The notes beneath the pieces were generated by a model. The model had not been told where the DNA came from and searched no databases. It saw only the letters and a list, made by a program, of their open reading frames with translations. A stretch of 64,000 nucleotides of DNA. Source: a virus. The stretch lies in IMG/VR virus record IMGVR_UViG_3300017971_007886, positions 1 through 64,000 of that record, one strand, 5' to 3'. A program made the translations under genes and the position numbers. The stretch's first letter is position 1. Every line of letters starts with the position of its first letter. Of this stretch, positions 24,628 through 44,152 are shown piece after piece.

Positions 24628-25362
24628 ATGGCAGAAGTAGAGAAGACGGTCAAACGTCTGGAGAAGATGGCAGAAGCCCTGTTGGAGATCGCGGAGGCTC
24701 TACCCGGCTTGGTGGGCACCAAGTCTTCAAAGTCAAAGTCCAAGGCCAAGCCCGCCCCAGAGCCCGAGCCCGATGAGGACGAGGAGCTGGAAGAGGAAGA
24801 GGTCGAGGAGGAAGTCGAAGAGGAAGAGGAGGCAGAAGAGGAAGAAAGCCCTTCCGACGACGGCGACCTGGATTCGATGAACCGCATCCAGTTGTTGCCG
24901 CTCGCCAAGGAACTCGGAATCGACAGCCGTGGCAAGAAGGGGGACGAGCTGCGGGAACTCATCCGAGAAGCCCAGGGCGACGGGGGTACACGCAAGAAGA
25001 CTACCAAAAAGAAGGGTACCACCAAGAAGGCCGCCGCTTCCAAAGGCGCGTCCAAGAAGTCCCGGCCAGCCAAGTCCGGGCTCTCCTCGAAGAAGCCCGC
25101 AAAAGGTGGGCTAGGAGGCGCGAAGAAGAAAGGTACCGGGAAGCCGAAGCTCTCGGTGAGACTGGAGACATTCATCAGCAACAACTACGCCGACTTCGCT
25201 GAAATCCTCGATGGGGAGCGCGACGAGGAGACGGGCGTGTTGGGCTGCCAGGGTGTCTGCACCAAATGTCCGAACCCCGAAGAGTACGACACCGCCGCAG
25301 AGCAGGTCAAAGCCTGCTACGCCACGGTCAAGGACAGAATCGAGGCAGAGGAAGACGAGTAG
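24628..25362 (+). CDS. acidic/basic protein with Rho-N-like domain and C-terminal Cys cluster
   Basis: Poly-E tract, LDSMNRIQLLPLAKELGI..KKGDELRELI, K-rich tract, CQGVCTKC. Confidence 0.65.
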   Translation: MAEVEKTVKRLEKMAEALLEIAEALPGLVGTKSSKSKSKAKPAPEPEPDEDEELEEEEVEEEVEEEEEAEEEESPSDDGDLDSMNRIQLLPLAKELGIDSRGKKGDELRELIREAQGDGGTRKKTTKKKGTTKKAAASKGASKKSRPAKSGLSSKKPAKGGLGGAKKKGTGKPKLSVRLETFISNNYADFAEILDGERDEETGVLGCQGVCTKCPNPEEYDTAAEQVKACYATVKDRIEAEEDE

Positions 25363-25391
25363 CGCACCTTCCCGCAAGCGACATCTTCAGA

Positions 25392-25436
25392 ACGCGAGGG
25401 CACTCCGGGCGGCTGGCCTGGGGTGCCTTTTCGCGT
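25392..25436 (+). terminator. hairpin / probable terminator
   Basis: GCGAGGGGCACTCCGGG pairs with CCTGGGGTGCCTTTTCGC. Confidence 0.45.
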
Positions 25437-25459
25437 CTCAGGGAGGCTGCGCCGATCCT

Positions 25460-25920
25460 ACCGGCCCCCGATTCTACCGGCCCCCAAGGGTACCCCGGCC
25501 CCCGGTCCTACCCCGGCCCCCGGCCCCCGGCCCGGTACCTTGCCAGGGGTACCCCTGGCCCCCTTGCCATACGTTGCCCTACAATCGGTTGCCCTAGGTA
25601 CCCTTGCCACCGATTGCCATACGTTGCCAGGGGTACCCTTGCCCTACATTGCCCTAGGTACCCTTGCCACCGATTGCCATACGTTGCCCTAGGTGTATTG
25701 TACCCCGGCCCGGTACCCCGGCCCGGTACCCTTACAATACGTTGCCATACATTGCCACCGATTGCCCTAGGTACCCCGGCCCGGTAGGGTACCGGTACCC
25801 TACCCTAGGTTGCCATACGTTGCCCTAGGTGTATGGTGAAAAGAAAAGTAACCAAGGGGCCGGGGTACTGTGTAGGTACCTCAGAGGTACCCAAAACGAT
25901 CGTTAGGGGTACCGATTGAT
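25460..25920. repeat. low-complexity repeat array (GGTACC, CCCGG, CCTAGG, phased TTGCC)
   Basis: Identical 40-mer at 25589-25628 and 25649-25688; TTGCC recurs at mostly 10-bp spacing. Confidence 0.9.
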
Positions 25921-25931
25921 CCGATTAGGGA

Positions 25932-25961
25932 TTGACAATCGAAGATCGTTGATCTCACAAT
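25932..25961 (+). promoter_or_regulatory. sigma70-like promoter TTGACA-N18-CACAAT
   Basis: Perfect -35 upstream of the H1-like gene. Confidence 0.5.
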
Positions 25962-26030
25962 GGGATTGAACCATTAACAGGCCCCTAGGGGCCAAAGAAC
26001 AGGGGCCAAGCCCCGAGGAGAACTAGAACC

Positions 26031-26585
26031 ATGGCGAGACAAGCGAAAACCACAACCAAGGCCACAACCAAGAAAGCCCCCAAGGCCCCCAAGGGTACCC
26101 CGAAAAAACCGGCCCCCAAGGCCCCCAAGGGTACCGCCAAGGCCAAGAAAGCCCCCAAGGGTACCGCCAAGGCCAAGAAAGCCCCCAAGGGTACCGCCAA
26201 GGCCAAGGCCAGCGACAAGGCCAGCGACAAGGCCCCCAAGGCGGTATCTACCCCGCGATTGAATCAAACCGCGATCAAAATGGGGGGCCGGTATCACATG
26301 ACGCGATCCTACCATTTTGAAGATCCCAAGGCCCGATCCGAGTTTATCGCGAGACTCGAAGCGGGAGACTTTGATCTCGCGATCCAGTATCTTGAGGTAG
26401 GCCCCTTTGTGGTCCTAGTCAACGTGGAAGCCGAGCCCTTGCCGATCAACGTGTCCGACGATCCCAAGGTGAAGGAAGCGCGGGAAGCGTATAAGGCGGA
26501 AATGGCCAAGGCCAGGGAAGCCCTGAAGGCCAAGGTTGCCGAAATCAAGGCCACCTATCGCGCCAAGGCCAAGGCCAGCGAATAG
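26031..26585 (+). CDS. histone-H1-like Lys/Ala/Pro-rich DNA-binding protein
   Basis: GAGGAG RBS; KAPKGTAKAK x3 (30-bp tandem repeats) followed by a small folded domain and a basic helix. Confidence 0.7.
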   Translation: MARQAKTTTKATTKKAPKAPKGTPKKPAPKAPKGTAKAKKAPKGTAKAKKAPKGTAKAKASDKASDKAPKAVSTPRLNQTAIKMGGRYHMTRSYHFEDPKARSEFIARLEAGDFDLAIQYLEVGPFVVLVNVEAEPLPINVSDDPKVKEAREAYKAEMAKAREALKAKVAEIKATYRAKAKASE

Positions 26586-26975
26586 CCAAGGCCCCCCGGC
26601 CCCCAAGGGTACCCCGGCCCGGTCCTACCCCGGCCCGAGGTACCCCGGCCCGGTCCTACCATGCCCGATCAACGTCCTACCCCTTATCCCTACCGGCCCG
26701 AGGTACCCCGGCCCCCCAAGGGTACCCCGGCCCCCGGTAGGGGTATCCCTACCCCGGCCCGGTACCTTGGCCCCTTGGCCTTGTGTCTGGCCTTGGTAGG
26801 GATACCCCTACCCCTACCGGCCCCCGGCCCGGTCCTACCCCGGCCCGAGGTACCCCGGCCCGGTCCTACCTTGGCCCCTTGCCAAGGGTACCCCGGCCCC
26901 CGGCCCGGTCCTAGTCTACTGGCCCCCGGCCCCCGGCCCGGTACCCCGGCCCGAGGTACAAGGCCCCCGGCCCGA
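26586..26975. repeat. low-complexity repeat array (CCCCGGCCC / GGTACC / GGTCCTACC)
   Basis: Repeated GGTACCCCGGCCC and GGTCCTACCCCGGCCC units shared with 25480-25530. Confidence 0.9.
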
Positions 26976-27080
26976 TTTGTTGATCGTGCCGATCTATTAT
27001 ATAGGTGTGATCCCTACTTTTGCCCACATTGCCAGGGTACCGGGCCGGTACCTGGCACTAACCAAAAAGGAGAGCTGGAA

Positions 27081-27257
27081 ATGAAGTGTAGCAAGTGTGG
27101 ATATGCGGACCCCGAAGGGAGGGCAGTTGACTGCCCGAACTGCGGAGCCCCAGCAGAGGTTGACGAGTGCCCAGAGTGTGGATCTCTTGGCAGTCAGGTG
27201 TGTTCCCCGGACTGTTCTATTCAGCGCAACCCAGACAAGGAGAGCGACGATGAGTAG
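27081..27257 (+). CDS. small Zn-ribbon protein
   Basis: AAGGAG RBS; CSKC, CPNC, CPEC. Confidence 0.55.
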   Translation: MKCSKCGYADPEGRAVDCPNCGAPAEVDECPECGSLGSQVCSPDCSIQRNPDKESDDE

Positions 27258-27433
27258 GCCACGCTGTAAGGTGCTCCAGGTGTTCGATCCAGAGTCAGGC
27301 CGTCACTACCGGTGCAGGGTCAACGGTGTGAAGTTGGATCGCAACAAGGTACTGACCGTCCCGTTCAAGAGCGGGCTGGCCAAGGTGTTTTGGAATCACG
27401 ATTGCTCCCGGTGGGAGCGGAAAGGAGCGTAGC

Positions 27434-27904
27434 TTGAGAACTATTCGCCAATACAGATACCCACGCAAACTGGAGTTGGTTGCGCGGAGTATCACTATGA
27501 CAGCAGAGGAGCGAGCGGTGTACGCCACAAAGGCTGACATGCCCGACAAGTTGGCGGCCATCCTTCTCCCGATGCTGCGACACACCGAGCAGGAGCGGTT
27601 CTTGGTAACCCTCTTGGATACGCCGCTACTGGTCAACGGTGTGATCGAGATTGCGCGTGGATCAGTGAACGTGTGCGCTGTCCAGCCAAGGGAGGTGTTT
27701 CGCCCAGCGGTGCTGGCGAACTGTGCGGCGATCATCCTCGCACACAATCACCCATCAGGTAGCCTGAAGCCTTCGCAGGATGACCTGAAACTCACTCGGA
27801 GGTTAGTGAAGGCAGGAGAGGTACTGGGTATCCAGGTGCTCGATCACCTGATACTCGGTCGAGGGGACTTTCTCTCGTTGAAGGCTGCGAGGAAGATGAA
27901 CTGA
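27434..27904 (+). CDS. RadC-like JAB/MPN domain protein
   Basis: QERF, PREVF, AHNHPSG..PSQDD, VLDHLI. Confidence 0.88.
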   Translation: MRTIRQYRYPRKLELVARSITMTAEERAVYATKADMPDKLAAILLPMLRHTEQERFLVTLLDTPLLVNGVIEIARGSVNVCAVQPREVFRPAVLANCAAIILAHNHPSGSLKPSQDDLKLTRRLVKAGEVLGIQVLDHLILGRGDFLSLKAARKMN

Positions 27905-27924
27905 ACCAGAACAAGGAGAACAAG

Positions 27925-28437
27925 ATGTTGCACAAGAAACCAGAACGTGAACGAACAGCACTTGAGATCGCCAGAGAGATTGACGGGTTCATGCAGGATG
28001 CGGCGGGCGATGCCGTGGACTACTTGGCCGGGCAGTTGTGTCGGTTGCCCTACAACCCGACCCAGAAGCAGGTCTTCGAGGTGTTCGAGTTCGACGGGTT
28101 CAAGCTCACCCAGAAGAGGATGCGCCAGGTGTGGTCGAATCTCCAGGGCACCATCCACCGTGACAAGTGGGACATGAGGGGGTGGCTCGCGGACGAGTGG
28201 TACTCCAGTCCTTGGAGTTGGACCGACTACGCAGGAGATCGACTCTGTGACGAGACGTACAAACAGGGTGATGCACTCCGCGATGCCGTGGTAGACCACT
28301 TGGCTGAGATGAACAGACACATGGCCCCGTGGGTGTGGCGCTATCTGAAGGGTGACGACAGTGCGCTGCCCAAGGAGCGGAAGCGAAAGAAGGACGAGGG
28401 CAGTGTGGTCCTCGTCCGCGACGAGGACTTCCGATGA
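27925..28437 (+). CDS. hypothetical early protein
   Basis: AACAAGGAG RBS; 170 aa. Confidence 0.55.
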   Translation: MLHKKPERERTALEIAREIDGFMQDAAGDAVDYLAGQLCRLPYNPTQKQVFEVFEFDGFKLTQKRMRQVWSNLQGTIHRDKWDMRGWLADEWYSSPWSWTDYAGDRLCDETYKQGDALRDAVVDHLAEMNRHMAPWVWRYLKGDDSALPKERKRKKDEGSVVLVRDEDFR

Positions 28438-28633
28438 GCAATCTGTCTATCCCACCGGACGTTTGGTTGTCCGAGCTATTCGAGAGCGAGTATTGCCCCG
28501 AGTGCGGTGGGGACGCCGAGCACCACGAGGCGATACCCGTTCTTGGGAATTGGTTTGCCAGGTGCAAGTACCCGTGCGACGACGAGGGTGTTCCGCACCC
28601 TGTCATTTTGAAGTTCAGAAAGGAGAACGAGTG

Positions 28634-28891
28634 ATGAGCAGGTTCTACGACGATGGCGATTACTACGACGAGGAATACTACGGCTACGATGAGGATGGAG
28701 ACCTCATCGACGGAGTAGGCTTTGCCGACCCTGGTGGACGGTCTGCCCTTCGGGCGGCTACCCCTGACAACCCCCGAGACCAGGAGTGCCCAACGTGCGG
28801 GGCACAGAACGTCCTGACTCGGATCGACAGACAGCGCGGCTACCAGTGTGACCGGTGCGCCGACAGAGCTGAGATGGGGATGGACTACTGA
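28634..28891 (+). CDS. Zn-ribbon hypothetical protein
   Basis: AAGGAG RBS; CPTCG...YQCDRC. Confidence 0.55.
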   Translation: MSRFYDDGDYYDEEYYGYDEDGDLIDGVGFADPGGRSALRAATPDNPRDQECPTCGAQNVLTRIDRQRGYQCDRCADRAEMGMDY

Positions 28892-29351
28892 TGGGGCACT
28901 GGGTCAACGGAGTTTGTGACGTGTGCGGGAAGACTCGCAGCGTCGAGGTGATGTCATACACCGAGCCTGATGGCACGTCAGATCAGGTCGCCGTGTGTTT
29001 CATCTGCCAGAAGGAGACGGAGCGCAAGTCGCGAAAGGACGAAGCGGAGTACATGGCTCAGTACAAGGAAGAGCCCGACCCTGGCTACGACCCGGATGAG
29101 GTCGAGGATGCTTGGGACGATGCGGCCCGGAGGTATGGAAATGAAAACGGGAACGCAGAGTAGTAGCCGTCTCCAGAAGGACATGCGTGCCAAGACGCAT
29201 TTGGACCGGTGCCGTCATTGCGGGGCACAACAGAACAAGCGGACCAACTTGGTAGGGGTCACGCAACACGACAAGGAAGGGAGGTGTTTCAGACTGAGAG
29301 TTGAGAGGCAGTACCTAGGAACGAACTTTGAACCAGAAACGGAGATGAACG

Positions 29352-29582
29352 ATGGCAATAACGAACAAGGCCCTGGCCAGGCAGTATGAGAAACGTGCCC
29401 AAGCCGAACGAGACGCAGGTGGATTCTGCGTGGTCACGGCGAACATGCCCTGTATCGAGCTGAAGTTGTCCGATGGGTCGGAATACTTCTTCCAGGGTGA
29501 GGAGGCAGAGAACCTTTTGAGCGAGGTACCGGATTGGATCTATCCAGACGACTACCTCTTGGCCATGGCACAGAACTGGTAA
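29352..29582 (+). CDS. hypothetical protein
   Basis: GGAG RBS; 76 aa. Confidence 0.5.
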   Translation: MAITNKALARQYEKRAQAERDAGGFCVVTANMPCIELKLSDGSEYFFQGEEAENLLSEVPDWIYPDDYLLAMAQNW

Positions 29583-29602
29583 CCATTAACAAGGAGAGAA
29601 CG

Positions 29603-30082
29603 ATGCTACAGATCGAAGACAAAGAGTACCATGGGCAAGTGTTGGCGAAGGCCAAGGAGATGGGCGGCGATTGGCTGGAGCGCCTTTCGGAACGTCTCAA
29701 CTACCTTGGCAACTACTCGTGCCATGATGGTGACACGGAGCGAACACGGTGTAGGCTGTTCAGTGACTTCGCCCCACTGTCGTACTACTTCATCATGGAG
29801 CTACGGGTGGAGGTACGCGACCGTGAGTGTCTGTCGTGCGGTCACAAGTTCACGGCAAAGGTGGTACGTGAGAAGCCCACGCCGAACATCAGCGGGGAGG
29901 CAACCGTGTGGTGCGAGCGGTGTGGTGCCAAGACGTGTGGCGAGCCCATTCGGCAGGAGTACCAGGAGTGGTTCAACGGTGGGCTCATCTTCCACGGGCC
30001 ACATGACAACGGAGGCGATGGAGGGGCACCGACGTTCTCGGTCAACCTCATGCCCAGCCATGGCTGGAACATTCACACTTGA
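29603..30082 (+). CDS. DUF4120-like protein with inserted Zn ribbon
   Basis: DFAPLSYYF...NGGLIFHG...GWNIHT interrupted by CLSC/CERC. Confidence 0.55.
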   Translation: MLQIEDKEYHGQVLAKAKEMGGDWLERLSERLNYLGNYSCHDGDTERTRCRLFSDFAPLSYYFIMELRVEVRDRECLSCGHKFTAKVVREKPTPNISGEATVWCERCGAKTCGEPIRQEYQEWFNGGLIFHGPHDNGGDGGAPTFSVNLMPSHGWNIHT

Positions 30083-30108
30083 GAACAACTAACAAGGAGC
30101 AAAGAACA

Positions 30109-30564
30109 ATGAGTTTCAAACACACATGCACCATCGAGAACGCCCCGCGATTCGCAGAGTGGATCAAGACCCGAGGCGGTGTCGCAGTCTGGCGTTCGGT
30201 CAACCTTTCCAATCCAGGCGCGTCGTGGAGTACCCCCGCACTCACTGTCGAGGGTGAGCCGACGCCCAAGCCCACCTGGCAGGCCGACTCTCAGCCGGAG
30301 TCGGTATTCACTGACCCCGCAGACATCGGGGTATCCATCGACAAAGAGGTCAAACGCTTTCACGTCGCGGTACGCCCTGGGAGTAATGGGCTCTCCCTCA
30401 AGGTGAGCGACGGCGGATCGCGGAGGATTCGCAAAGAGGTTGAGAAGGCGGGCGAGGGGGCATACCACGTCTTCGACTACTACGACTACGACAACGCAGT
30501 CATCATGGCCCCTGCGGGCGAGTCCGTCTCCCTCAAGCAATGGATGGAGGACAACAATGTGTGA
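30109..30564 (+). CDS. hypothetical early protein
   Basis: AACAAGGAG RBS. Confidence 0.55.
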   Translation: MSFKHTCTIENAPRFAEWIKTRGGVAVWRSVNLSNPGASWSTPALTVEGEPTPKPTWQADSQPESVFTDPADIGVSIDKEVKRFHVAVRPGSNGLSLKVSDGGSRRIRKEVEKAGEGAYHVFDYYDYDNAVIMAPAGESVSLKQWMEDNNV

Positions 30565-31150: not shown

Positions 31151-31624
31151 AGACGCACATGCGAGATATACGATTGAGGAACAATGCGGGCATCGACTTT
31201 CCCGTGTGTTGCCGGAACGCACCCGCGTTGGACCTAGACAAGTCGAGGTACCCCACCACTGGCAACATCAAAGAGGTGGATTGTAAACGGTGCCTCAAGT
31301 CATTCCCACGGCTATACCCGTGGGCGAGCGGGAGGTGACATGGACTTCATGCTCAACGTCCAGGGCCGGTACGTCTGTTGGGATAGCTACCGTGCCGTGT
31401 GGTACCTCGGACCCAAGCGGTTGTCGGAGTGGTTCGCTGCCGACTTTCGGAATGGGAGAGTAGGTGCCAGAGCGGAGAAGGCTTTGGAGTGGTTCCCCAC
31501 TGCCAAGGCGGTGTGGAGGAGAAGCTGATGTTCTACCTCCCACAAACAAACAGAGAGTGGCTCCAGTTCTTCTGGGGCATGTTCAAGTGGAAGTACCTAG
31601 GAACTACTAACAAGGAGAACAGCA

Positions 31625-32521: not shown

Positions 32522-32714
32522 TGTTGGTAGTCAAAGTCGAAACAGACAACGCAGCGTTTGGTGAGACCGATGATGAGCTGCGGTACGAGGCGTCATACGT
32601 TCTCAGGAATATCGCTGACTGGATCGATGAGGGTTGTGACCTGCCTATGGGCAAGAAGGTCATGGACCACAACGGGAACACTATTGGCAAGGTCACTCTG
32701 AAGAAAGGAGATGT

Positions 32715-34381: not shown

Positions 34382-35206
34382 ATGAACAAGAAGGACATCG
34401 AAGAAGCTGTTGCGAACGGTATCTCGGAAGGAATGGCCGAGGTCGTCTCTACGCTGGTAGAGATTCGTGACGCCATTGGTACAGCGGGGTGGGGCGGAGA
34501 CAAACCTGCCGCGCCCGCTGACGAAGAGGAGCCCGAGGAACCGGAAGAGGTCGAAGAGGAGGCAGAGGAGCCCGAAGAGGAAGAGGCGGCAAGCGGGGAG
34601 TTCAACCTCGGTGACGAGGTGGTCGCGTACTTGGCTGACGAAGAGGGGAACGCTGACTGGTACGAGTCCGAGATTGTCGCTATGAACAGCGAAGGCGAGT
34701 TCACCATCAAGACGCAGGATGGTGACGAGATTCCTGGCGTGGGGCCAGGGTACTTGGCTGCCCCCGAGGATGAGGATCGTATCCTCGCAATCGAGGGCGG
34801 TGAGTTGGATGAGGAAGAGGCTCCAGAGGAGGAGCCCGAAGAAGAGGAACCCGAAGAAGAGGAACCCGAAGAGGAGGAAGAGGAAGTGGCTACCAAGAAG
34901 ACCAAGAAGAAGACCTCGAAGAAGGCCACCAGCAAGAAGGAGACCGCCTCCAAGAAGGACAAGGCCGCCGAGGAGGCCGCAAAGGAGAAAGCGCGGAAGG
35001 CCAAGCGAACTCGGCTCGCGAAGGGTGTTCCCTACACCAAGGAACAGTTGCAGAGCGACAAGTTCAAGCGACAAGACCTGGTGATGTTGGCCTCGTACAT
35101 CAACGAGGTCGCAGGGAAGAAGGTCATCAAGAACCCACTGGCGAAACAGGCGTTGCTGATCAACTCGATCATCAAGTACCAGAAGGTACTGAAGAAGGGC
35201 AAGTAG
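34382..35206 (+). CDS. acidic protein with Tudor-like beta domain and basic C-terminus
   Basis: AGGAGAG RBS; poly-E tracts around FNLGDEVVAY...WYESEIV...FTIK; K-rich tail; TTGACT at 34243. Confidence 0.65.
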   Translation: MNKKDIEEAVANGISEGMAEVVSTLVEIRDAIGTAGWGGDKPAAPADEEEPEEPEEVEEEAEEPEEEEAASGEFNLGDEVVAYLADEEGNADWYESEIVAMNSEGEFTIKTQDGDEIPGVGPGYLAAPEDEDRILAIEGGELDEEEAPEEEPEEEEPEEEEPEEEEEEVATKKTKKKTSKKATSKKETASKKDKAAEEAAKEKARKAKRTRLAKGVPYTKEQLQSDKFKRQDLVMLASYINEVAGKKVIKNPLAKQALLINSIIKYQKVLKKGK

Positions 35207-35534
35207 CCTGTGAGCCCCTTCACTGATTGGCTCAAGCCTGACAAGGTAGAGTCCTTCAAAGCCGACTACGAGGGCATCGTGTGTGAGGCGCGGTGCCCTT
35301 GTGGTGCGGTTACCCCGATCCTCTTTCAACAGGGTACCGAGGAATTGGATACGCTACTGAGTCATGGTCTCGTGATCGACGTTGAAGTGCAATGTTACTC
35401 GTGTGACCAAACTCTGTCCTACCGCACCAGTGAGACTGCGCCAGTGGTGTGGGATTCGAGGAAGCACGAACTGAACCAGTAACCATTAACCCTTGGGTAC
35501 TCAGCGCACGGGTACTCAGGATCGGAGGGAGGAC

Positions 35535-36083
35535 ATGAGGAAGCTCAGTCCCAGGGAGTACCGCGAGGTACTTTATGAAAGGGAGGTGTACCGTTCCCGA
35601 ATTTATGCCCCGCCCACACGGAAGCAACTGAATCTGTACCGGAAGCCCGGTTGTGGCTTCAACCAACAACTCTACCGACAACCAGAGAACACCAAGCGGT
35701 TGGCTCCGAGGAAGTACAAGCCGAAGATCAAGCCGCGACAGGGGTACCTGGCAGACTACGTGACTCGAACCACGGTCGCCTTCGCAAACGACAATGGCGG
35801 TGAGTGGTACGTGTCCTACGCTGGATACCAGGTGGCGATCCTCGAACGTCTGTTCTACGAGGAGAAGGCCCCCAGCATGTTGTACGAGGTCGTCGGCGGG
35901 ATCTTCGCCCATCCGTTGCTGGAGGACGAAGGTATCGTTTTCATCCAGTTGTCGAGACTGGACGCACTGGTGGAGGTGTGCCTCGAAGACCTGCGCGTGT
36001 CCCTGCAAGGCCAGGTGTCATTGGCCGATGTCCTGGCCGCAGGCGGCGAATCGGTGTTCCAATTCAGGCCACAGGCATCGTGA
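35535..36083 (+). CDS. hypothetical protein
   Basis: GGAGG RBS. Confidence 0.5.
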   Translation: MRKLSPREYREVLYEREVYRSRIYAPPTRKQLNLYRKPGCGFNQQLYRQPENTKRLAPRKYKPKIKPRQGYLADYVTRTTVAFANDNGGEWYVSYAGYQVAILERLFYEEKAPSMLYEVVGGIFAHPLLEDEGIVFIQLSRLDALVEVCLEDLRVSLQGQVSLADVLAAGGESVFQFRPQAS

Positions 36084-36136: not shown

Positions 36137-37111
36137 ATGAAGACATTCACGCAACAAGAACTTGAGAAGATGAGCCTTTTGGAGATCCGAAAGGTTGCCC
36201 GCAAATTGGGAATCACTGACATCGCTGGTAAGCGACAGAACGAAATCGTCAGGAAGATTCTAACCAAGCAAAAGCCCGGTGGCGTGGACCCACGGGTGAA
36301 GCCGAAGGAGGCTGCGGCGGCCAAGAAGAAGACCAAGGCCGAGCCCAAGCCCAAGGCTGCGAAGAAGACCAAGGCCAAGACCAAGGCTGCTCCAAAAGAG
36401 GACATCGAAGAGCCAACGTTCTCTGGTACACTGGAGCAGAGGGTGGCGCGAATCGAGATGGCCTTGGTGGGGGCAGGGATCATGGATGCGAAGATGGACA
36501 AGAAGAAGCCAGCAACGAAGACGCCGCCCAGCGTGGAGCAAGCGGTATTGCCGAGTGAGTGGTTCGACGAGGATGGGAATCTCTCGCTCACGCCAGAGGA
36601 CATCGAGTCGATGAACTTCGATTCCATCCTGGCAGTCAACAACCTCTTGGGTGACTACGCCGCCGACATCCCTGAGTCGCAAAGGAAGACGCCACGACTC
36701 GCGAGGATGCGGTTGGTTCAGGCACTCAGGAAGATCGGTGATGTCGAACAAGGGGAGGGTGACGACGAGCCAGAAGAGGAAGGTGAGCTGGTGGAAATCG
36801 AGCCCAACGAAGAAAGCCCGTTCCCGCCCGAGGAGGTCGGAGACCAGTGCTACATCAAGGACGAGAAAGGCCGGTGGTTTGCGGGGCTCGTCGTTGACAT
36901 CTCCGAGAAGGATGGAGAGCCCTGGTACCTCATTCGCTACACCGTTGGCGATGCGGTGATCGAGGAAGAGGTCGATGTCGAGGAGCTGAAGCCTTGGGAG
37001 CCCGACGAGGAGGAAGAGGCAGAGGACGAGGAAGGCGAAGAGGAAGAGTACGAAGAAGAGGACGAGGCTGAAGAGGAAGAAGAAGAGTACGAAGAAGACG
37101 AAGACGAGTAG
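36137..37111 (+). CDS. Rho-N-like + Tudor/SH3-like protein with poly-acidic tail
   Basis: ELEKMSLLEIRKVARKLGI..KRQNEIVRKI; VGDQCYIK..WFAGLVV..WYLIRY; TTGACA at 36098. Confidence 0.65.
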   Translation: MKTFTQQELEKMSLLEIRKVARKLGITDIAGKRQNEIVRKILTKQKPGGVDPRVKPKEAAAAKKKTKAEPKPKAAKKTKAKTKAAPKEDIEEPTFSGTLEQRVARIEMALVGAGIMDAKMDKKKPATKTPPSVEQAVLPSEWFDEDGNLSLTPEDIESMNFDSILAVNNLLGDYAADIPESQRKTPRLARMRLVQALRKIGDVEQGEGDDEPEEEGELVEIEPNEESPFPPEEVGDQCYIKDEKGRWFAGLVVDISEKDGEPWYLIRYTVGDAVIEEEVDVEELKPWEPDEEEEAEDEEGEEEEYEEEDEAEEEEEEYEEDEDE

Positions 37112-37118
37112 CTGACGC

Positions 37119-37156
37119 GAGGGGCGGGTGCCTGTCATGGGTACCCGCCTCTTTGT
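37119..37156 (+). terminator. intrinsic terminator
   Basis: GGCGGGTGCCT/GGGTACCCGCC stem followed by TCTTTGT. Confidence 0.55.
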
Positions 37157-37421
37157 GTGCTTGGAGGTTGAGATGCGATGGAGACCGAACGATGGGTAGC
37201 CTAGCACCACGGAGCCGGAAGGGTTTCATGGTGCTGATGAATGTGCCGATGCCCAAGAGCGGGCGTTGCATGTTCTGTAAACGTACTGTCCCAATTAAGG
37301 CCAAAGTCATAAGCTGTGATCATGCCCCACCTACTGGATTCGCCTGTGCTGAGTGTACTCGCCAGCGATTCCTTCCTACCGATGGCTCGCCCGAGCCCGA
37401 CTTCTTCCGAAAGAGCTAACG

Positions 37422-39497
37422 ATGACGCGAATCTACCTTGCCGGTGCGGAGAGTGGTCCGCTCTCAGATGAGCTAGAAGAGAACAACGTCAAGCACATCC
37501 TCTACTCCTATTTCTGGTTGTCGAAGAAGGATCGGGAGAGGGTGATGGTCGAACGCATAAAACGAGGTCGGGAGAATGGTATCAAATACCTGCTCGACTC
37601 GGGTGCGTTCACCTACCTCGATGCCCAACAGGCGGGCTCGCGACTCCCCTTCAACGTCTACAAGAAGAGGTACTTTGACTTCATTGCCAAGCACGGTGAG
37701 TTGTTCGAGGCGTGCGCGGAACTCGATGTCGAAGGTGCTGAGATAGACGGGATGGGTACAATCTCCCTCGACCAGGTGTGGCACTGGCGACAACAGATGT
37801 TCGAGGCTAACCCGAAAGCCACCATCATGCCCGTCTGGCACTTCGGTACTCGTACCCAAGAAGAGTGGAACACGCTTTGTGAAGATCCTCTCGTCACCTA
37901 CCTTGGAATCGGAAGTACCCACAGCGGCGCAGTCTTCAATCAAGAAGGAGTATTCCACAGGCTCATTGCGAAGGCCCATGCCCACGGCAAGCGGGTACAC
38001 GGAATGGCCGCGACCAAGGTGAAGACGCAGTTGAAGAAACTCAAGTTCGACAGCGTAGACAGCGCCTCCTGGCTATCTGCCCAGAAGTTCGGTACGACGT
38101 TCATCTTCAAAAACGGGCAATGGATAGTTCTGGACAAGTACAAGAAGAACCAACGCAGAATCCATCGACGCCACTTCACCAAGATCGGCGTGGACTACCA
38201 AAAACTCGAAGCAGACAAGAGTAGCGAATTACGCCATGCAGCGATATTGGCGTGGAGAGACCTGGGAGAGTGGCTGATGAAGAAACGGGCCAAGATGCAC
38301 CAAGACCTGGAAGACCAAATTGCGGCTACACCTCAAGTAGACCCAGAAGTGCCACAGGAGAAGAAAGTGCCAGCTACGAAGAAGGCCAAGAAGTCCAAAA
38401 ACAAGGTACCAATCAAGGTACCCGCAAAGGTACTTTCAGGGGTACCGGCACCCCAAAAACCACCTCGCGGGAAGGCAAAATCGAGTGGTGAAGTCTTCAA
38501 AATACCGTGTCCCAGTTTTGGACAAAAAGCAGACGACGGTGCGGTAAAAAGGGGCCGAAGGGGTCGAAAACGCACATTTGCGCGGACCCCAATTACGACC
38601 AGCTCGCGGGATGGAAAACAGACTCCCAAGGTCAACGATAAAGCCACTTCTATGGATAAGGGAGACCCTACAGAAAAGGCCCCTGATAAAGGTACCCCGT
38701 ATCTCGAAGAGGTACCCCAACCTACGCTACCCCAGGAGCCAGTGTCTCAGGACGCACTTGCTACGGTAGAGCAGCCAGATAGCACACTTCCTACCTGGAA
38801 ACGCCCTGATTATCTACACAAGACCGAGAAGCAGAGGTCGCTACTCCATGATCTACCACAACTGAAGTGTGGGCTGTGCTCCATAGGTACTGATTGCCCG
38901 TCCTATGATGAGTCACTACAACAGTGTGCCTTTGCTGAAAGGCTCAATGCGTTTCCAGTACGTGATGCGGACAATCTACTGGGTGCTATGGAGTACATTG
39001 TAGATGTCAACAAGTCGCGGCTATGGAAACTACTTCTCATGGAGAACATGATCGAAGGCGGTATGCCAAGCGAACGTGCTACGCAACTTTCTGAGATTGT
39101 ACTGAACCAGCTCGAACGGCTCAGAGAACAAAGAACCATGATGGAAGGCGCTGCTGTGAAAGTCAATTCTGGACCCGGTATTCTAAGCTCCATATTTGGG
39201 GTCTCTGGAAGGGGGTCTGTGGGGGGTACGGCAGTACAGGTAAATATACAGAACGCCCCAGCTCGCGGCGCAGATGTACGTGATGATAATCCTGCCAATA
39301 GTGGGATTGTAGTGGAAGCACAGACAGTACCCCATAATGTACCTACAGAAGAGGGTACCCCTACTGCGGCTACTGATGCGCAAGTAGTAGAAGCTGAAAC
39401 AGAGAATGAAGTACCTAGTTCTGGCGAATCAGGTAGCAAAGCTGACACAGGTACCACAGGAGAGGACGCCCCCTCGGGCAAGGGGGTGGGGGGTTAA
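37422..39497 (+). CDS. TGT/DpdA-like transglycosylase domain fused via a disordered linker to a Cys4 helical domain (possible TerS)
   Basis: IYLAG, LLDSGAFT, ELDV, PVWH, VHGM, DSVDSASW; C-terminal CGLC-x5-CPSY-x6-C and GILSSIFG. Confidence 0.7.
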   Translation: MTRIYLAGAESGPLSDELEENNVKHILYSYFWLSKKDRERVMVERIKRGRENGIKYLLDSGAFTYLDAQQAGSRLPFNVYKKRYFDFIAKHGELFEACAELDVEGAEIDGMGTISLDQVWHWRQQMFEANPKATIMPVWHFGTRTQEEWNTLCEDPLVTYLGIGSTHSGAVFNQEGVFHRLIAKAHAHGKRVHGMAATKVKTQLKKLKFDSVDSASWLSAQKFGTTFIFKNGQWIVLDKYKKNQRRIHRRHFTKIGVDYQKLEADKSSELRHAAILAWRDLGEWLMKKRAKMHQDLEDQIAATPQVDPEVPQEKKVPATKKAKKSKNKVPIKVPAKVLSGVPAPQKPPRGKAKSSGEVFKIPCPSFGQKADDGAVKRGRRGRKRTFARTPITTSSRDGKQTPKVNDKATSMDKGDPTEKAPDKGTPYLEEVPQPTLPQEPVSQDALATVEQPDSTLPTWKRPDYLHKTEKQRSLLHDLPQLKCGLCSIGTDCPSYDESLQQCAFAERLNAFPVRDADNLLGAMEYIVDVNKSRLWKLLLMENMIEGGMPSERATQLSEIVLNQLERLREQRTMMEGAAVKVNSGPGILSSIFGVSGRGSVGGTAVQVNIQNAPARGADVRDDNPANSGIVVEAQTVPHNVPTEEGTPTAATDAQVVEAETENEVPSSGESGSKADTGTTGEDAPSGKGVGG

Positions 39498-39561
39498 GCA
39501 CTCGCACCTTAGAAGTAGGGGCTCAGTGATCTACAGAATAAGCAAAAAGCTAGGAGGGCAC

Positions 39562-39981
39562 ATGCCGAAATCGGGCGGGACATCGAGGGAGAGTGAGCGG
39601 GGAGACCTCAGCTCACTTTCGACGACGGGTCAGGTACTCAAAAATGAATCGCTACGCGAAGCGTTGGCCTCCTGGGAGCATCATCGGTGGGCGTCCTGGC
39701 AGGGGTACTTCCATGGAAAATGTGAGCGACAGCCTGACGGCTCCCTGGTGATCCCAGCGGAGTACGTGCGGGCCTTGGGCAGGTTGATGTACCTGGCCTA
39801 TTCGGAGTTGACCGAGGAGGAGAAGGGGCTGGACCGCAAGGAAGCAGACCGGATCATCGCGATTGTGGAGACGTACCTGGGTGGGCAAGTGACCGAGGGT
39901 CGCGGGAGGGTCGAAAGTGGGTCGGATCAGGGTCAAATGAGCCCCTGGCGAGGTACCGTCCCCAAAAGTACCCCAAAATGA
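39562..39981 (+). CDS. divergent RyR-like protein
   Basis: EHHRWASW...AYSELTEEEKGLDR. Confidence 0.5.
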   Translation: MPKSGGTSRESERGDLSSLSTTGQVLKNESLREALASWEHHRWASWQGYFHGKCERQPDGSLVIPAEYVRALGRLMYLAYSELTEEEKGLDRKEADRIIAIVETYLGGQVTEGRGRVESGSDQGQMSPWRGTVPKSTPK

Positions 39982-39997
39982 CCGCTAGGAGAGCAAA

Positions 39998-40252
39998 ATG
40001 AGCAGACATCCGATTGGTGAGTACCTACTCGTTGAGAAGTTGCAGAGGGAAGCAAACCGCAAAACGGACCAGTGGAAGGTCTACGGACTGCACGACAACC
40101 TACTGGGCTTGATCAAGTGGTTTGGCCGGTGGCGTCAGTACACGTTCTTTCCGGCTGCGGGTACCGTTTTCAATAGTACCTGCCTACTGGACCTCAAAAT
40201 GCACCTCGATTGGGTGAACAAGGAGTGGCGGGAGGCGAAACGCAATGGGTGA
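39998..40252 (+). CDS. hypothetical protein
   Basis: AGGAG RBS; WRQYTFFP. Confidence 0.55.
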   Translation: MSRHPIGEYLLVEKLQREANRKTDQWKVYGLHDNLLGLIKWFGRWRQYTFFPAAGTVFNSTCLLDLKMHLDWVNKEWREAKRNG

Positions 40253-40484
40253 CATCACGTACTTGGGTACCTGCAAGGGGAACAACCTGCGGGAAGCGGC
40301 GGATATGGCGGATCAAGGTGACATCACCCACGCAGTAGTCGCGTACCGGACAGAAGGGGGAGAACTCAAGTACCGGCTGATCGGGGAAGAAGACCTGACG
40401 TACCTGATCGGCCTGTTGGAACGCACGAAGGTACACATGCACTGTTCGGCGGCCTACGTGATACCCGGCGGGGAAGGAGAATAG

Positions 40485-40994
40485 ATGGCAAAGAGAGCGA
40501 AACAGGATGTGACACTACGATCACACCAGTACGACGGCAGCGGGTGGGGTACAGGTACCACCTTGGCGGATCTACAAGACGAGCGGCCCGCAAAGAAGTA
40601 CCGCCCGCAAGGAGACAAAGCCACCTTGCCGGTCGCGAAAAACCCAGGACGCATTGAGAATCGTACCCCACTCCCAGATCGTACCGCCGAATACTGTTGT
40701 CAAGGGTGCAAGAACCCACTAGCGGCGCGGGAGGTCAATATACTCCTGGCTATCGAGAATCAGCCGCGAAGATTTTGTTGCTGGCCCTGTTTCGTCGCAT
40801 GGGTGAATGACCCCGATAGCGCCCTCAACCAAAATTTGGACCAAAAGCCCGCTCTGTACCAAGTGCCCATGTACCCCTCTCACTCAAAAAACTGCCCCAT
40901 TTGTCCAGATGAGCAAATTGACCATCAAACAGTCCCGAGTGTGAAGATGATCAAAAAGACCAAGCAGCCCAAAAGTAGGAGAAAGACCAAATGA
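40485..40994 (+). CDS. Zn-finger hypothetical protein
   Basis: CQGC...FCCWPC...CPIC. Confidence 0.5.
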   Translation: MAKRAKQDVTLRSHQYDGSGWGTGTTLADLQDERPAKKYRPQGDKATLPVAKNPGRIENRTPLPDRTAEYCCQGCKNPLAAREVNILLAIENQPRRFCCWPCFVAWVNDPDSALNQNLDQKPALYQVPMYPSHSKNCPICPDEQIDHQTVPSVKMIKKTKQPKSRRKTK

Positions 40995-41368
40995 GCCCGA
41001 AACTACTCGCAGACGCGCTAGTTGCCGCTGACGTAGTACAGCCAGAGAACCACCCCGATTCGGTTGAGCGACGGCAACTCGTCAAAGGGTGGATCAAGGC
41101 CATACGGTGGGTGTGGAAGCAACCGAAGAGTTGGGTGTACCAGACGTGGGAGCCCAACAAAGACCGCAGACCACCATATCCGCCTCCGAAGTTCCTCGAC
41201 GAGCATCGCGTCCGAATGGTCTCCTTCGCGTTTTACCGTGGGAAGGACGGTGCGCCCTACTTGGGCGATATTCGCATGGCCCTCGAATCGATCAACATCG
41301 CTGATCAACAGTACATCTGCGATGCGGTCGCATCTCACTATGAGACGTGGGAGACCAAGAATGGATAG
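40991..41368 (+). CDS. hypothetical protein
   Basis: ATGA-coupled ORF. Confidence 0.5.
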   Translation: MSPKLLADALVAADVVQPENHPDSVERRQLVKGWIKAIRWVWKQPKSWVYQTWEPNKDRRPPYPPPKFLDEHRVRMVSFAFYRGKDGAPYLGDIRMALESINIADQQYICDAVASHYETWETKNG

Positions 41369-41880
41369 GCGGTATCATCTCGCTCCCTGCGCCATCAAGC
41401 CGAATGGCGAGATTTGGGAGCATCCCACTTTTCGGTATGTGGTGCCCGAAGCGGAGCTGGCCTTCAAGTACCCTCATCGGAACTTTCGGTATGCGAAGGC
41501 TGGGGACTACATCGGCCTAGTTCTGTCCAGTACCGGCACGAAAGTAGATTTCCAGATCACCACCAACCACCCAAACATGACCGACCCGGCTTGGTTGAAG
41601 CGGGTCACTTTCATAACCAGAGTGATTGCAGTCCAAGACAAAGGAGAGTTCTGATGCCACGCAAGATTGACAATGACCACCAGTTGAGGCGAGCCCCGCA
41701 CAGTACCAAGAAGGTCAAGAGGGGAAGACAGGTCGAACTCAAGTCGGCTGTGAAGGTGAGCGACCCGGTGATGTTGTCCGAGATGCTTGCCTCCATCGCC
41801 AACGACGAGCGCCTTGAGGCCGACATCCAGTTGCTTCCCGGTACCTACGTCATCACGGCCATCGTGGACGTGAAGAGTTT

Positions 41881-42390
41881 GTGATGCCTGGCATCTGGGA
41901 CCAAGTAGAGGCCCTTGTGGCAGAAGGGAAGGGTGCGACGATCACGTTGACCGAGGCGCACGAGGTCAAGATCCCGTACCAGCGAAAGAAGCTCCCGAAG
42001 AAGTACGTCCACAAGGACCGTCCATGGGAAACCTACGACGGTTGCACGCGAGGGACAGGCCGCCCTCGGTGCCAATGGAAAGGGTGCAACACCTACCTGA
42101 AGAAAGATCAACCGGTGGCGTGCTGCATCGAACACGAACAGAAGATTGCCGACTACTGCATACGGATGTTGGCCGTGATACGGTACCGTATAGTGGATCG
42201 GTTGGACGACTACGACGAGTTGCTTCACGGTGACTCGGTGGTAGCCAAGTTCTTGGAGGAATTGAAAGATGGCACACTACTTAACGTCAATGGAAACTCT
42301 CAACCTCCTTCAGCAGGAGACGAAGGAGGACCAGAAGAGGAACCAACGGAGACAGCAAGCGATAGCCCTGGTGTCGAGGACGACGGGTAG
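41881..42390 (+). CDS. hypothetical protein
   Basis: CQWKGC...CCIEH. Confidence 0.5.
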   Translation: MMPGIWDQVEALVAEGKGATITLTEAHEVKIPYQRKKLPKKYVHKDRPWETYDGCTRGTGRPRCQWKGCNTYLKKDQPVACCIEHEQKIADYCIRMLAVIRYRIVDRLDDYDELLHGDSVVAKFLEELKDGTLLNVNGNSQPPSAGDEGGPEEEPTETASDSPGVEDDG

Positions 42391-42519
42391 GCCCCAGCAC
42401 GACTTCGGTGCGCGTGATTGGGCCTTGGTCCAAGCGCATGAACAACGAATGGAGAAGGCCGACAAACCACCGGCCCCTCGCAGGGCCACGTTCTCCATCG
42501 ACCCGAGCGGGAGAGCCGT

Positions 42520-43098
42520 ATGAAGATCGAAGCTGACAGACCTGAACGAGTCCTAGCCAACTTGCGTGGGATTGAGATTGACCCAGAAACAGATGCAGCC
42601 AAGATCAAGTGGTCTCACTACGAAGGCACTCCGGGTGGTGGAGTGATCGAGGTGGTCGAGGAGCACACCTACACGTTCGATGACCCCGTACTTCGCGGGA
42701 TCACGAAAGAGCTTCACGACTACCTGGTCGAGTGTATCGAGAGGGACGAGCAACAGCCTCACGAGGAGAACTCGTGTGAGACGTGTACGACTCAGAACTG
42801 CTGTTCGAGCGACTTCTCAGAACCACTGTGGTTGACCCAGAGCGACATCGAAATGTTGGAGCTGGATGACGACCAGGTGTGTTTCCTCGGTGAAGGCCAC
42901 TGGGCCGGAAAGGGAGGTGGCAGTTGGGATGGGAATGACGATCCAGCGTGCAGCGACATCATTGGGTACATGGTCCGTGATCCGTGGTGCCCTCTTCTCG
43001 AAAATGGGAAGTGCTCGAAGTATGGTGTTCGCCCGCTTTCGTGCCGACTTGGCCCAGAGCGGAATTGCGGAATCAAAGACCTAGATAAGGAGACCTGA
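42520..43098 (+). CDS. YkgJ-family CxxCxxCC (Zn/Fe-S) protein
   Basis: CETCTTQNCC...CPLLENGKCSKYGVRPLSCR. Confidence 0.75.
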   Translation: MKIEADRPERVLANLRGIEIDPETDAAKIKWSHYEGTPGGGVIEVVEEHTYTFDDPVLRGITKELHDYLVECIERDEQQPHEENSCETCTTQNCCSSDFSEPLWLTQSDIEMLELDDDQVCFLGEGHWAGKGGGSWDGNDDPACSDIIGYMVRDPWCPLLENGKCSKYGVRPLSCRLGPERNCGIKDLDKET

Positions 43099-43100
43099 TC

Positions 43101-43799
43101 ATGGCAACAGTCGCGTACAGCGGTGGGATCGACAGCACCGTCCTCATGTACGAGTTGGCCTCTCAAGGCCGCCTCAACCTGGCGGTACTCTGCAACTTCG
43201 GACAGCCATCGTTTGATCGACAGCTTCGTTGTGCGGAGTATCAGATCGCCAAACTCGAAGAGCATGGCGTGGATGTCCACTTCCGGGTGGTGGAGTTCAA
43301 GACGCCCGAGGAGTTCCAGGTCAAGGAGGCTTCTCCGTTCTTCTCGATGCGGCCTCTGAACCCACTGGCCAAGGCACCAAAGAAAATGAAGGACGCCATC
43401 GCGTATCGACTCGATAACTTCGCCATCACCCCAGGACGGAACGCTTTCATGGTCTTGATGGTTGGGATGGTCGCGGCGGCCTTGGAGACGAACCCGGCAG
43501 TGGTCACGGCGTACCAGTACGAACAGGACATCTGGGATACGCAGGACACCATCTCAGGGGACGAGTCGCCCTCGTTCTGGTTGAAGATGGGCATGGTTTT
43601 GGAGACGGCCTTCGAGGTACCTGTGGCGCTTGAGAACCCGTTCTTGGATCGTCATTGGGACAAGGAGCGCATCATCCGTGAGGGTATCGAGTACGGAATC
43701 GACTTCGCACACACGATGTCCTGCGAATTTGAGGAGCCCTGCGGCGAGTGCGCCCAGTGCCAACTGGTCAAGAAGACGGTTGCCAAAACCAGGGGCTAG
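43101..43799 (+). CDS. divergent QueC-like PP-loop ATPase (paralogue 1)
   Basis: YSGGIDS, NFGQ, PGRN, GDESPSF, MSC..PCGECAQC. Confidence 0.85.
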   Translation: MATVAYSGGIDSTVLMYELASQGRLNLAVLCNFGQPSFDRQLRCAEYQIAKLEEHGVDVHFRVVEFKTPEEFQVKEASPFFSMRPLNPLAKAPKKMKDAIAYRLDNFAITPGRNAFMVLMVGMVAAALETNPAVVTAYQYEQDIWDTQDTISGDESPSFWLKMGMVLETAFEVPVALENPFLDRHWDKERIIREGIEYGIDFAHTMSCEFEEPCGECAQCQLVKKTVAKTRG

Positions 43800-43924
43800 A
43801 ACGTAATATGGAGTCTGAACATGGCGTGCGGGCTCTTGGAGCGAAAACGTAGACCTCCAATCCCAGGCCAAAACTGAGCTGGAGTCAAAACAACAACCTC
43901 CACTCAAACAGAAGGAGATGCCAA

Positions 43925-44038
43925 ATGGCACGAGGAAAGAAGAGAGCCTACAAAATGACCACCAAGGGCAAGCGAACCAAGGCGTTCAAGCCCCTCTTCG
44001 GAAAGAAGAAGGTCAAGGGCGGCAAGGGCGGCAAGTAG
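43925..44038 (+). CDS. 37-aa Lys/Gly-rich peptide A
   Basis: AAGGAG RBS; MARGKKRAYKMTTKGKRTKAFKPLFGKKKVKGGKGGK. Confidence 0.7.
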   Translation: MARGKKRAYKMTTKGKRTKAFKPLFGKKKVKGGKGGK

Positions 44039-44041
44039 GTC

Positions 44042-44152
44042 ATGGCCCGTGGGAAGAAGACGCTGGTGAAGCGTCTCAAGACCAAGGCCGGGGCCGTACT
44101 GCGCCGACTCTTCGGCAAGAAGAAGGTCACGGGAGGTAAAGGCGGCAAGTAG
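44042..44152 (+). CDS. 36-aa Lys/Gly-rich peptide B (paralogue of A)
   Basis: MARGKKTLVKRLKTKAGAVLRRLFGKKKVTGGKGGK; differences from A in the conserved blocks are mostly synonymous. Confidence 0.7.
   Translation: MARGKKTLVKRLKTKAGAVLRRLFGKKKVTGGKGGK

Follow-up and report, generated by a model that had tools for sequence, protein, structure and literature searches.

A neighbouring pair of HeH-Tudor protein families in the 7-deazaguanine gene region of a phage

The window analysed here covers the initial 64 kb of an IMG/VR virus record of 92,966 bp from an uncultured phage (IMGVR_UViG_3300017971_007886; CheckV completeness 98%), and between its positions 24628 and 44152 genes for strongly charged proteins stand among genes for DNA modification. 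The question raised by this locus is whether a phage could carry a chromatin-like system of its own. An earlier note, made from the letters of the DNA, had proposed as much: an H1-like protein and two histone-tail-like peptides would condense the phage DNA, and three acidic proteins assembled from the same modules (poly-Glu tracts, a Lys-rich tract, a Rho-N-like helical domain and, in two of them, a Tudor-like barrel) would be their partners. We find that the region encodes no demonstrable chromatin system, and that the claim of a toolkit is without support at the level of a system. The solid core is a pair of conserved neighbouring genes, at 34382 and 36137; the reading that we prefer, tentatively and at slightly less than an even chance, is that they encode bipolar HeH-Tudor adaptor proteins tied to the 7-deazaguanine module of this phage. 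What the analysis delivers so far is two small, well-defined protein families that form a pair; it is no evidence for chromatin in a phage.

The two HeH-Tudor families

The protein encoded at 36137..37111 (+ strand; 324 amino acids, acidic, isoelectric point (pI) 4.4) opens with a HeH module of the Rho_N type (residues 1-46, nucleotides 36137-36274), followed by the 17-residue motif PGGVDPRVKPKEAAAAK (residues 47-63, window 36275-36325), a Lys-rich linker, a conserved helical middle part, an acidic linker, a Tudor-type barrel (residues 229-290, nucleotides 36821-37006) and a poly-Glu tail (residues 291-324). Pfam Rho_N recognises residues 8-45 (8.7e-6; 26.1 bits against a cut-off of 24.9, and 29.6 bits in a six-frame scan). 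A search of 5.8 billion clustered proteins found only three homologues, with identities of 45-57%, and their alignment with the phage protein (A1) gives its parts very different degrees of conservation: the HeH is 72% identical in the family, the 17-residue motif 97% identical across the four homologues, the helical middle 55% and the barrel 35%, and the linkers fall to 22% identity with many indels. The 'Lys-rich' linker has a charge of +6 here and of -12 in the family member P0004, and the 34-residue poly-Glu tail is present in this phage only. The near-invariant PGGVDPRVKPKEAAAAK stretch looks like a docking motif for a partner. The middle segment was also considered as a second HeH, a possibility that was rejected (hhalign probability of 24% at most).

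The AlphaFold2 (AF2) model of the same protein contains the HeH (residues 1-45, with a per-residue confidence, pLDDT, of 83-90) and a five-stranded barrel (residues 230-290, pLDDT 80-87), with disordered linkers between them. In a wide structure search the barrel matched 6if4 with a Z-score of 8.6 (root-mean-square deviation (rmsd) 2.0 Å over 58 residues), ERCC6L2 with 8.2 and SMN with 7.5, while KOW and ribosomal SH3-like barrels ranked 1-2 Z units below Tudor; the N-terminus aligned with that of Rho (1a62, Z 6.7). Foldseek gave TM scores, relative to the target, of 0.74-0.81. At the sequence level the barrel alone remains below the Pfam Agenet cut-off (E 0.005; 17.8 bits versus 27), and the family profile matches the SPF30 Tudor domain at E 0.098.

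The second protein (34382..35206, + strand; 274 amino acids, acidic, pI 4.4; P0005 in our alignments) is composed of N-terminal helices, a poly-Glu linker, a Tudor/Agenet-type barrel (residues 73-128, nucleotides 34598-34765), a second poly-Glu linker, a Lys-rich tract and a basic HeH-like C-terminal module (residues 216-274, nucleotides 35027-35203). A word-indexed homologue search, swamped by poly-Glu words, returned only the protein itself, and an exhaustive HMMER search was used instead. It gave 47 matches, among them four short full-length relatives (P0008, P0016, P0023 and P0040). Their alignment (A2) defines an architecture of an N-terminal helix, a variable linker, the barrel with a conserved DRILAIE helix, another variable linker, a basic tract and a C-terminal module with the conserved pattern GIPY..L..KR.DLV.LA...LI.SI. 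The remaining matches fall in long proteins of eukaryotes, where the barrel occurs in as many as 19 tandem copies; in one of them, from Tribonema minus, Pfam finds 13 Agenet repeats at 1.6e-78. Tandem Agenet/Tudor proteins are matched by the 34382 barrel at phmmer E-values down to 9e-41, the value for an algal tandem-Agenet protein. The A2 profile matches the PHF20L1 Tudor domain (E 2e-5), Agenet proteins (3e-4) and further PHF20 Tudor-2, plant Agenet proteins and the KDM4A hybrid Tudor. The 34382 barrel therefore appears to be a relative of Tudor/Agenet domains at the sequence level, although Pfam gives no match for it. In its AF2 model a five-stranded barrel (residues 72-140) has pLDDT values of 78-91, and the C-terminal helices have values of 73-89. 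Tudor domains match this barrel in the Z range 8.1-7.7, for instance LBR with 8.1 and SMN with 7.9 (rmsd 1.9 Å), and Foldseek aligns it with PHF20 Tudor-2 at TM scores, relative to the target, of 0.81-0.83 (rmsd 1.8 Å). The C-terminus of the family matches Rho_N with an hhalign probability of 53%.

Both barrels thus have the trait of the Royal family of Tudor and Agenet domains (Pfam clan CL0049), a five-stranded SH3-like barrel, here superposable with an rmsd of 1.3-2.6 Å over 52-61 residues and with Foldseek scores of 0.74-0.83. Since AF2 modelling and the structure searches put Tudor first for 34382 as well as for 36137, the Tudor-like barrel that had been proposed for two of the three acidic proteins held up. 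With eukaryotic readers (PHF20L1/PHF20 Tudor-2, SMN, LBR, plant Agenet proteins) the phage barrels share an acidic surface; unlike them, the window's barrels score below the Pfam gathering threshold, and their setting is a phage protein with a HeH module, without a histone or a known protein-methylation enzyme. The HeH part in turn resembles the N-terminal HeH of Rho (PF07498) and the SAP/LEM/HeH DNA-binding motifs, by the match of the 36137 N-terminus and by the net basic charge of the modules. Unlike Rho, however, the phage proteins have neither an OB-fold nor an ATPase. Bacterial chromo-like domains of SH3 fold, which keep part of the aromatic cage, have been described, consistently in secreted or cell-wall proteins (Kaur et al. 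2018, PMC5906684); the phage barrels, in contrast, are without a signal peptide and are fused to a nucleic-acid-binding HeH. No description of a phage HeH-Tudor architecture was found in the limited literature searched, and the pair is a new domain architecture made from known parts.

The likeness to Rho and to KOW brings up another explanation, which we consider improbable: the HeH-Tudor proteins would serve transcription control or host takeover, docking RNA polymerase, Rho or a nucleoid protein of the host in the manner of the Tudor-like domains of CarD, Mfd and PcrA/UvrD or of NusG KOW, and their acidic tracts would mimic nucleic acid and so neutralise a basic DNA-binding protein of the host. 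NusG KOW domains do turn up in the structure searches (Z 7.2 and 6.8), nothing matches the 36137 N-terminus better than the Rho N-terminal domain, the near-invariant motif resembles a docking peptide, and some phages make acidic inhibitors of HU and H-NS. But the CarD, Mfd, PcrA-type Tudor and KOW families are not matched in sequence, the matches obtained being Tudor/Agenet readers, and the acidic tracts are not conserved.

Charge polarity, aromatic cage and charged tracts

What the two families have in common, beyond the two module types, is how charge is distributed over them. The barrels carry a net negative charge in nine of the nine family members (-4 to -13) and the HeH modules a net positive one (+3 to +9); the tract that precedes the HeH in the 34382 family is basic throughout (+4 to +14). 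The first linker of that family, on the other hand, has a charge of -17 here versus -1 to +3 in the relatives. Charge polarity is therefore conserved and the poly-Glu tracts, which most relatives do not have, are not. An acidic barrel of this kind would bind nucleic acid poorly, and basic peptides are its plausible ligands; for tandem Tudor domains, DNA binding that is independent of methylation and of sub-micromolar affinity has been shown (PMC13285377). The expectation that acidic proteins would bind basic ones is the part of the earlier logic that the data favour, on account of these uniformly acidic barrels.

The two genes are also physical neighbours, 930 nt apart in the window. In addition, P0008 of the 34382 family and P0003 of the 36137 family have the same source, in both cases a 4,141-bp Logan contig, and P0016 and P0004, again one from each family, both come from a 17,547-bp NCBI contig. 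Since source and size match in both instances, the two families seem to travel together. Of the co-occurrence in relatives on which the toolkit idea depended, this is what stands; it fails for the H1-like protein and the peptides because neither has relatives.

From the folds, superfamily membership, charge polarity, conservation and neighbourhood of these genes, all of which are observed, as is the reality of the genes themselves, we infer both the binding partners and the role of the pair. Each adaptor would have a net-basic HeH end of the Rho_N/SAP type and a net-acidic Tudor/Agenet SH3-like barrel, with fast-evolving disordered linkers between them. The basic end would tether the protein to nucleic acid, probably the phage DNA, the acidic barrel would dock a basic partner (a protein segment or the adaptor's own Lys-rich tract), and the two proteins would act together with the interleaved 7-deazaguanine DNA-modification and packaging genes. 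Several points weigh against this reading. The fold Z-scores of 7-8.6 lie in a common range, within 1-2 units of which KOW and ribosomal SH3-like barrels are found, and many uncharacterised phage proteins are small stand-alone barrels of this fold. The HeH assignment of the 34382 C-terminus appears weak, with its hhalign probability of 53% and no Pfam match. The co-occurrence of the families on two other contigs seems likely from cluster tables, that is, indirectly, and the link to DNA modification is one of neighbourhood, in a tightly packed genome with its genes on a single strand.

Should the pair work on phage DNA, it would offer a handle on how heavily modified phage genomes are dealt with on their way from replication through base exchange to packaging, and would bear on the roles of Tudor-type domains before eukaryotic chromatin. 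Tudor/Agenet barrels are viewed as eukaryotic readers of chromatin and RNA processing; here they are cytoplasmic, phage-encoded, fused to a HeH and encoded by a conserved pair of genes among 7-deazaguanine genes.

Whether the barrels could read modified lysines, as the toolkit idea implies, depends on the aromatic cage. In PHF20L1 Tudor-2 this cage is formed by W97, Y103 and F120 plus D122, and the W97A and Y103A substitutions abolish binding (PMC13285377). The equivalent positions, read from a profile alignment of the 34382 family to the PHF20L1 Tudor domain, are L84, Y94, T111 and D113 in the window's 34382 protein, whose barrel accordingly retains one of the three aromatic residues of its closest solved relative. 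They are L/Y/T/D in P0008, F/S/F/N in P0016, F/Y/F/D in P0023 and F/V/L/D in P0040. Two members of the 36137 family have a gap at the first position, and at the second the family has F, H, C or V. With such variation, the canonical methyl-lysine cage is not conserved in either family, and it is absent from the window's 34382.

This result bears on the toolkit itself, namely that the H1-like protein and the peptides would coat or condense the DNA, that the acidic proteins would chaperone or evict them by virtue of their poly-Glu tracts, with Tudor cages as readers of modified Lys/Arg, and that all of them would shield the DNA by condensation, decondensation or phase separation. We now give it very little probability. 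Its basic and acidic components are all real and found in a single stretch of 20 kb, both barrels are of the Tudor type and acidic without exception, hence suited to basic ligands, and P0023 keeps the full F/Y/F/D cage. Block polyampholytes of such a type can, moreover, coacervate. Against these stand the missing cage of 34382 and its lack of conservation in both families, the absence of poly-Glu tracts from most relatives, the lack of any relative for the H1-like protein and the peptides, and the 8-10 kb that separate the H1-like gene from the HeH-Tudor gene pair. Nor is there a protein methyltransferase or acetyltransferase, the one CxxCxxCC gene fitting DpdM.

The charged tracts call for an explanation of their own. 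Among all + strand open reading frames (ORFs) of the phage, long acidic and long basic tracts are combined only in the 34382 and 36137 proteins and in a third one, encoded at 24628..25362 (+ strand; 244 amino acids, acidic, pI 4.8) behind a strong ribosome-binding site, GGAGAGAG; poly-Glu and Lys-rich tracts do single out these three, as had been noticed. The third protein consists of an N-terminal helix, a poly-Glu tract (residues 41-84), a HeH/Rho_N-like segment (about 80-118, nucleotides 24865-24981), a Lys-rich tract (residues 120-175) and a C-terminal domain with four Cys. Its segment 70-125 aligns with the Rho_N profile of the 36137 family with an hhalign probability of 82.5%, alongside a BLASTP E-value of 0.007, and the protein matches phrog_3281 at 7e-6; the nearest structural neighbours of residues 71-120 in its Atlas model carry Rho_N or SAP, at low TM. 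Pfam Rho_N rises above its cut-off neither in 24628 nor in 34382, so that the Rho-N-like domain ascribed to all three is clear for 36137 and is seen by hhalign only in the other two. BLASTP finds no match between 34382 and either 24628 or 36137, and the barrels of 34382 and 36137, compared profile to profile, reach an hhalign probability of 44% (E 2e-4). The idea that the three proteins shuffle the same modules thus survives in a diluted form, the modules appearing, from such comparisons, to be common to them only at the level of superfamilies. We regard 24628 as the third HeH protein, similar to the other two in its charge style but of separate evolution. Hidden Markov models of each module found no further copies in the phage, and PADLOC and NCBIfam had no match for the four proteins of interest.

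A common promoter-like site had also been put forward for the three acidic genes. TTGAC does occur within 200 nt upstream of 34382 and 36137, as well as of the H1-like gene at 26031, but it is absent there for 24628, and the region contains six sigma-70-like sites versus 6.0 expected from shuffling. At the DNA level, a tandem repeat with a period of 6-30 overlaps every extreme charged tract. Because of this coincidence the acidic tracts look like recent products of slippage, and the poly-Glu tracts are lineage-specific expansions of tandem repeats rather than conserved functional modules.

It could then be asked whether these proteins owe their likeness to composition and their grouping is a pattern in the eye of the observer, being unconnected early or middle proteins that converged when expansion of GAR/AAG repeats gave them charged linkers, with HeH modules and barrels as generic building blocks of phages. 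We think this unlikely as a full account, though it deserves serious weight. A tandem DNA repeat lies under every charged tract, the sign and length of the tracts differ among close relatives, the tail of the H1-like protein differs by one repeat unit between near-identical phages, and RecA and the DpdA-like enzyme of this phage carry basic tails too; 34382 has no BLASTP similarity to the other two proteins, and its barrel fold abounds in uncharacterised phage proteins. Composition by itself does not explain, however, why two module types recur together in 34382 and 36137 with identical charge polarity, nor why their genes are 930 nt apart in families that seem to travel together on two contigs.

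The H1-like protein, its repeat island and the twin peptides

The H1-like basic protein (26031..26585, + strand; 184 amino acids, pI 10.2) starts MARQAKTTTKATTKKAPK. Its residues 1-72 are a tail of Lys/Ala/Pro/Thr repeats (counted by codon, 23 Lys, 19 Ala and 9 Pro), in which three perfect 30-bp repeats at 26121-26207 encode AKKAPKGTAK, and the tail is followed by a globular, helical C-terminal domain. Such a tail, disordered, basic and rich in Lys, Ala and Pro, is a trait of linker histone H1, and to that extent the name is deserved. It goes no further: neither the protein nor its C-terminal domain alone matches any Pfam family at E of 1 or less, the H1 winged helix (PF00538) included; Hc1 and Hc2 (PF07432, PF07382) are matched neither in Pfam (E of 1 or less) nor in NCBIfam (E of 0.1 or less), and the protein belongs to no PHROG family. 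A homologue search with the C-terminal domain returns only the domain itself, and its Atlas structural neighbours are uninformative (TM below 0.4), so the globular domain is, as judged by these searches, an orphan.

The idea of an H1-like protein in a phage is not new in itself, because Hc1-family proteins encoded by 'moraphages' have been reported (PMC12619734). With these (PF07432), and with chlamydial Hc1/Hc2 and Pseudomonas AlgP, the protein shares a repetitive basic tail rich in Lys, Ala and Pro. A 174-residue variant (P0057) from a near-identical phage has exactly one 10-residue repeat fewer, two units of 30 bp versus three, which recalls chlamydial Hc2, whose repeat number varies between isolates (PMC2848022). 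Unlike Hc1/Hc2, the phage protein has an orphan C-terminal domain and a tail that is coded by the DNA words of a flanking non-coding repeat island.

This island extends over 1.6 kb (25450..27060), holds the H1-like gene and is built from the words GGTACC, CCGGCCC, CCAAGG and TTGCC. GGTACC has a density of 17.4 per kb in the island versus 1.35 per kb elsewhere in the genome (13-fold), and CCGGCCC of 17.4 versus 0.05 per kb (about 350-fold); between 25560 and 25830 the TTGCC words are phased at 10 bp. The Pro-Lys-Gly-Thr units of the tail are coded CCC-AAG-GGT-ACC, that is, in the island's own words, and GGTACC sites are therefore found inside the gene. Either the island repeats gave rise to the tail, or cis sites are provided by the coding repeats themselves. 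The island may be an array of the iteron, pac or origin type or a target motif for DNA modification, and the H1-like protein is probably a DNA-binding protein that serves the island around it; a linker histone acting on the entire genome is not required. Of the sigma-70-like sites in the region, the best (25932-25961) lies upstream of its gene. Over the whole genome, GGTACC occurs about four times more often than expected at random, as estimated from base composition.

At the other end of the stretch two small polycationic peptides are encoded just upstream of terL. Paralogue A (43925..44038, + strand; 37 amino acids, pI 11.8) has a GGAG ribosome-binding site, and paralogue B (44042..44152, + strand; 36 amino acids, pI 12.0) ends 83 nt before the terL start. 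They contain 16 and 14 Lys and Arg respectively and no acidic residue, share the pattern MARGKK...LFGKKKVxGGKGGK and both terminate in GGKGGK. Over the 20 conserved terminal codons they show seven synonymous differences and one non-synonymous difference, which points to purifying selection; by this codon evidence the twin peptides are real coding units, and the two GGKGGK peptides first noticed in the letters of the DNA are confirmed as such. Their histone-tail-like nature is not: phmmer with both peptides against all PDB chains gave no histone match at E of 10 or less and no homology to any solved protein, and the likeness to the histone H4 tail is one of Gly/Lys composition over 6-7 residues. 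The same search led us to reject them as small ribosomal proteins or histone tails. There is no further copy within the phage, and a degenerate DNA pattern for FGKKKVxGGKGGK had no match in viral contigs.

Small basic proteins are packaged with viral DNA in several viruses: the T4 internal proteins, adenovirus mu/VII and protamine-like proteins. The twin peptides resemble them in being very basic, free of acidic residues and encoded at the head of the packaging module, a place that suggests, as a guess, that they could act as counter-ions of the DNA during packaging. Unlike these proteins, they have no evident capsid-targeting or protease-site signal and no relatives. One might go further and suppose that phages with 7-deazaguanine-modified DNA carry a dedicated DNA-organising module, in which the HeH-Tudor proteins would sit on the genome by their basic ends and capture Lys-rich partners with their acidic barrels, so as to control compaction, modification and packaging; such partners could be the twin peptides, the tail of the H1-like protein, or basic tails as in RecA and DpdA. 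This we regard as a long shot, both for the module and for the list of partners. If true, it would be a prokaryotic-virus analogue of the chromatin formed by readers and linker histones.

The 7-deazaguanine gene neighbourhood

All convincing genes of the phage are on the + strand, and the stretch with the charged proteins is interleaved with a set of 7-deazaguanine DNA-modification genes, in the order QueD-QueE-FolE, 24628, ..., 36137, DpdA, ..., DpdM-like, QueC-like, peptides, TerL, QueC. QueD (22093), QueE (22973) and FolE (23554) are directly before the 24628 gene. The gene for a DpdA/TGT-like DNA transglycosylase (37422..39497, + strand; phrog_887, 5e-41), which has a K/P-rich insert, starts 311 nt past the end of the 36137 gene. 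Farther downstream, a CxxCxxCC gene of the YkgJ/DpdM type (42520-43098, + strand) scores just below the cut-off of Pfam PF03692 (4.4e-4; 21.3 bits versus 23) and is followed by a divergent QueC-like gene (43101-43799, + strand; Pfam QueC 1.4e-14), directly upstream of the peptides. The CxxCxxCC gene is the only candidate 'writer' in the region. We considered it as a protein-lysine methylase of the FliB type and rejected this, since it has no FliB-type match and the dPreQ1 methyltransferase DpdM, which has been described as a YkgJ homologue (PMC10516641), fits better; with a QueC-like gene beside it, its product is better explained as a putative DNA-modification enzyme of the DpdM/YkgJ type. 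No separate queF gene was found in the phage, the sole match falling inside FolE.

The large terminase gene (44235-45971) gives the nearest cultured relatives: its product has about 35% identity to TerL of Bacillus phage BCD7 and Streptomyces phage BRock, neither of which has genes comparable to those of this phage upstream of terL. Among deposited phages none is close at the DNA level (megablast and tblastn with the region, the 24628 protein, P0004 and P0054), and no related locus was found in viral, genome or metagenome contigs with the 36137 and 34382 proteins, A1, A2, P0054 and TerL as queries. A second, 14-kb copy of the region elsewhere in the genome was envisaged and rejected, the 36137 protein matching once only. 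No small terminase gene is evident upstream of terL, and Rfam and tRNA scans of the window had no matches.

A few minor features of the neighbourhood may be added. Between and after the two HeH-Tudor genes (35210-36083 and 37153-37419) there are Cys-rich ORFs of 90 and 88 amino acids, which carry zinc-ribbon-like CxxC pairs, and a 196-residue orphan; these may share a conserved block with the HeH-Tudor genes, because the 4,141-bp contig of a relative has room for them. The DpdA/TGT-like protein contains a K/P-rich insert of about 180 residues, after which comes a Cys-containing helical C-terminal domain, and RecA (12097-13377; Pfam RecA 3.5e-26) has a Lys-rich N-terminal extension of about 35 residues. 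Basic tails on DNA enzymes such as these two seem to be a habit of this genome. Finally, within 42520-47061 two QueC paralogues flank terL, the second of which (46393) is typical (Pfam 2.2e-32) and has a weakly QatC-like C-terminus.

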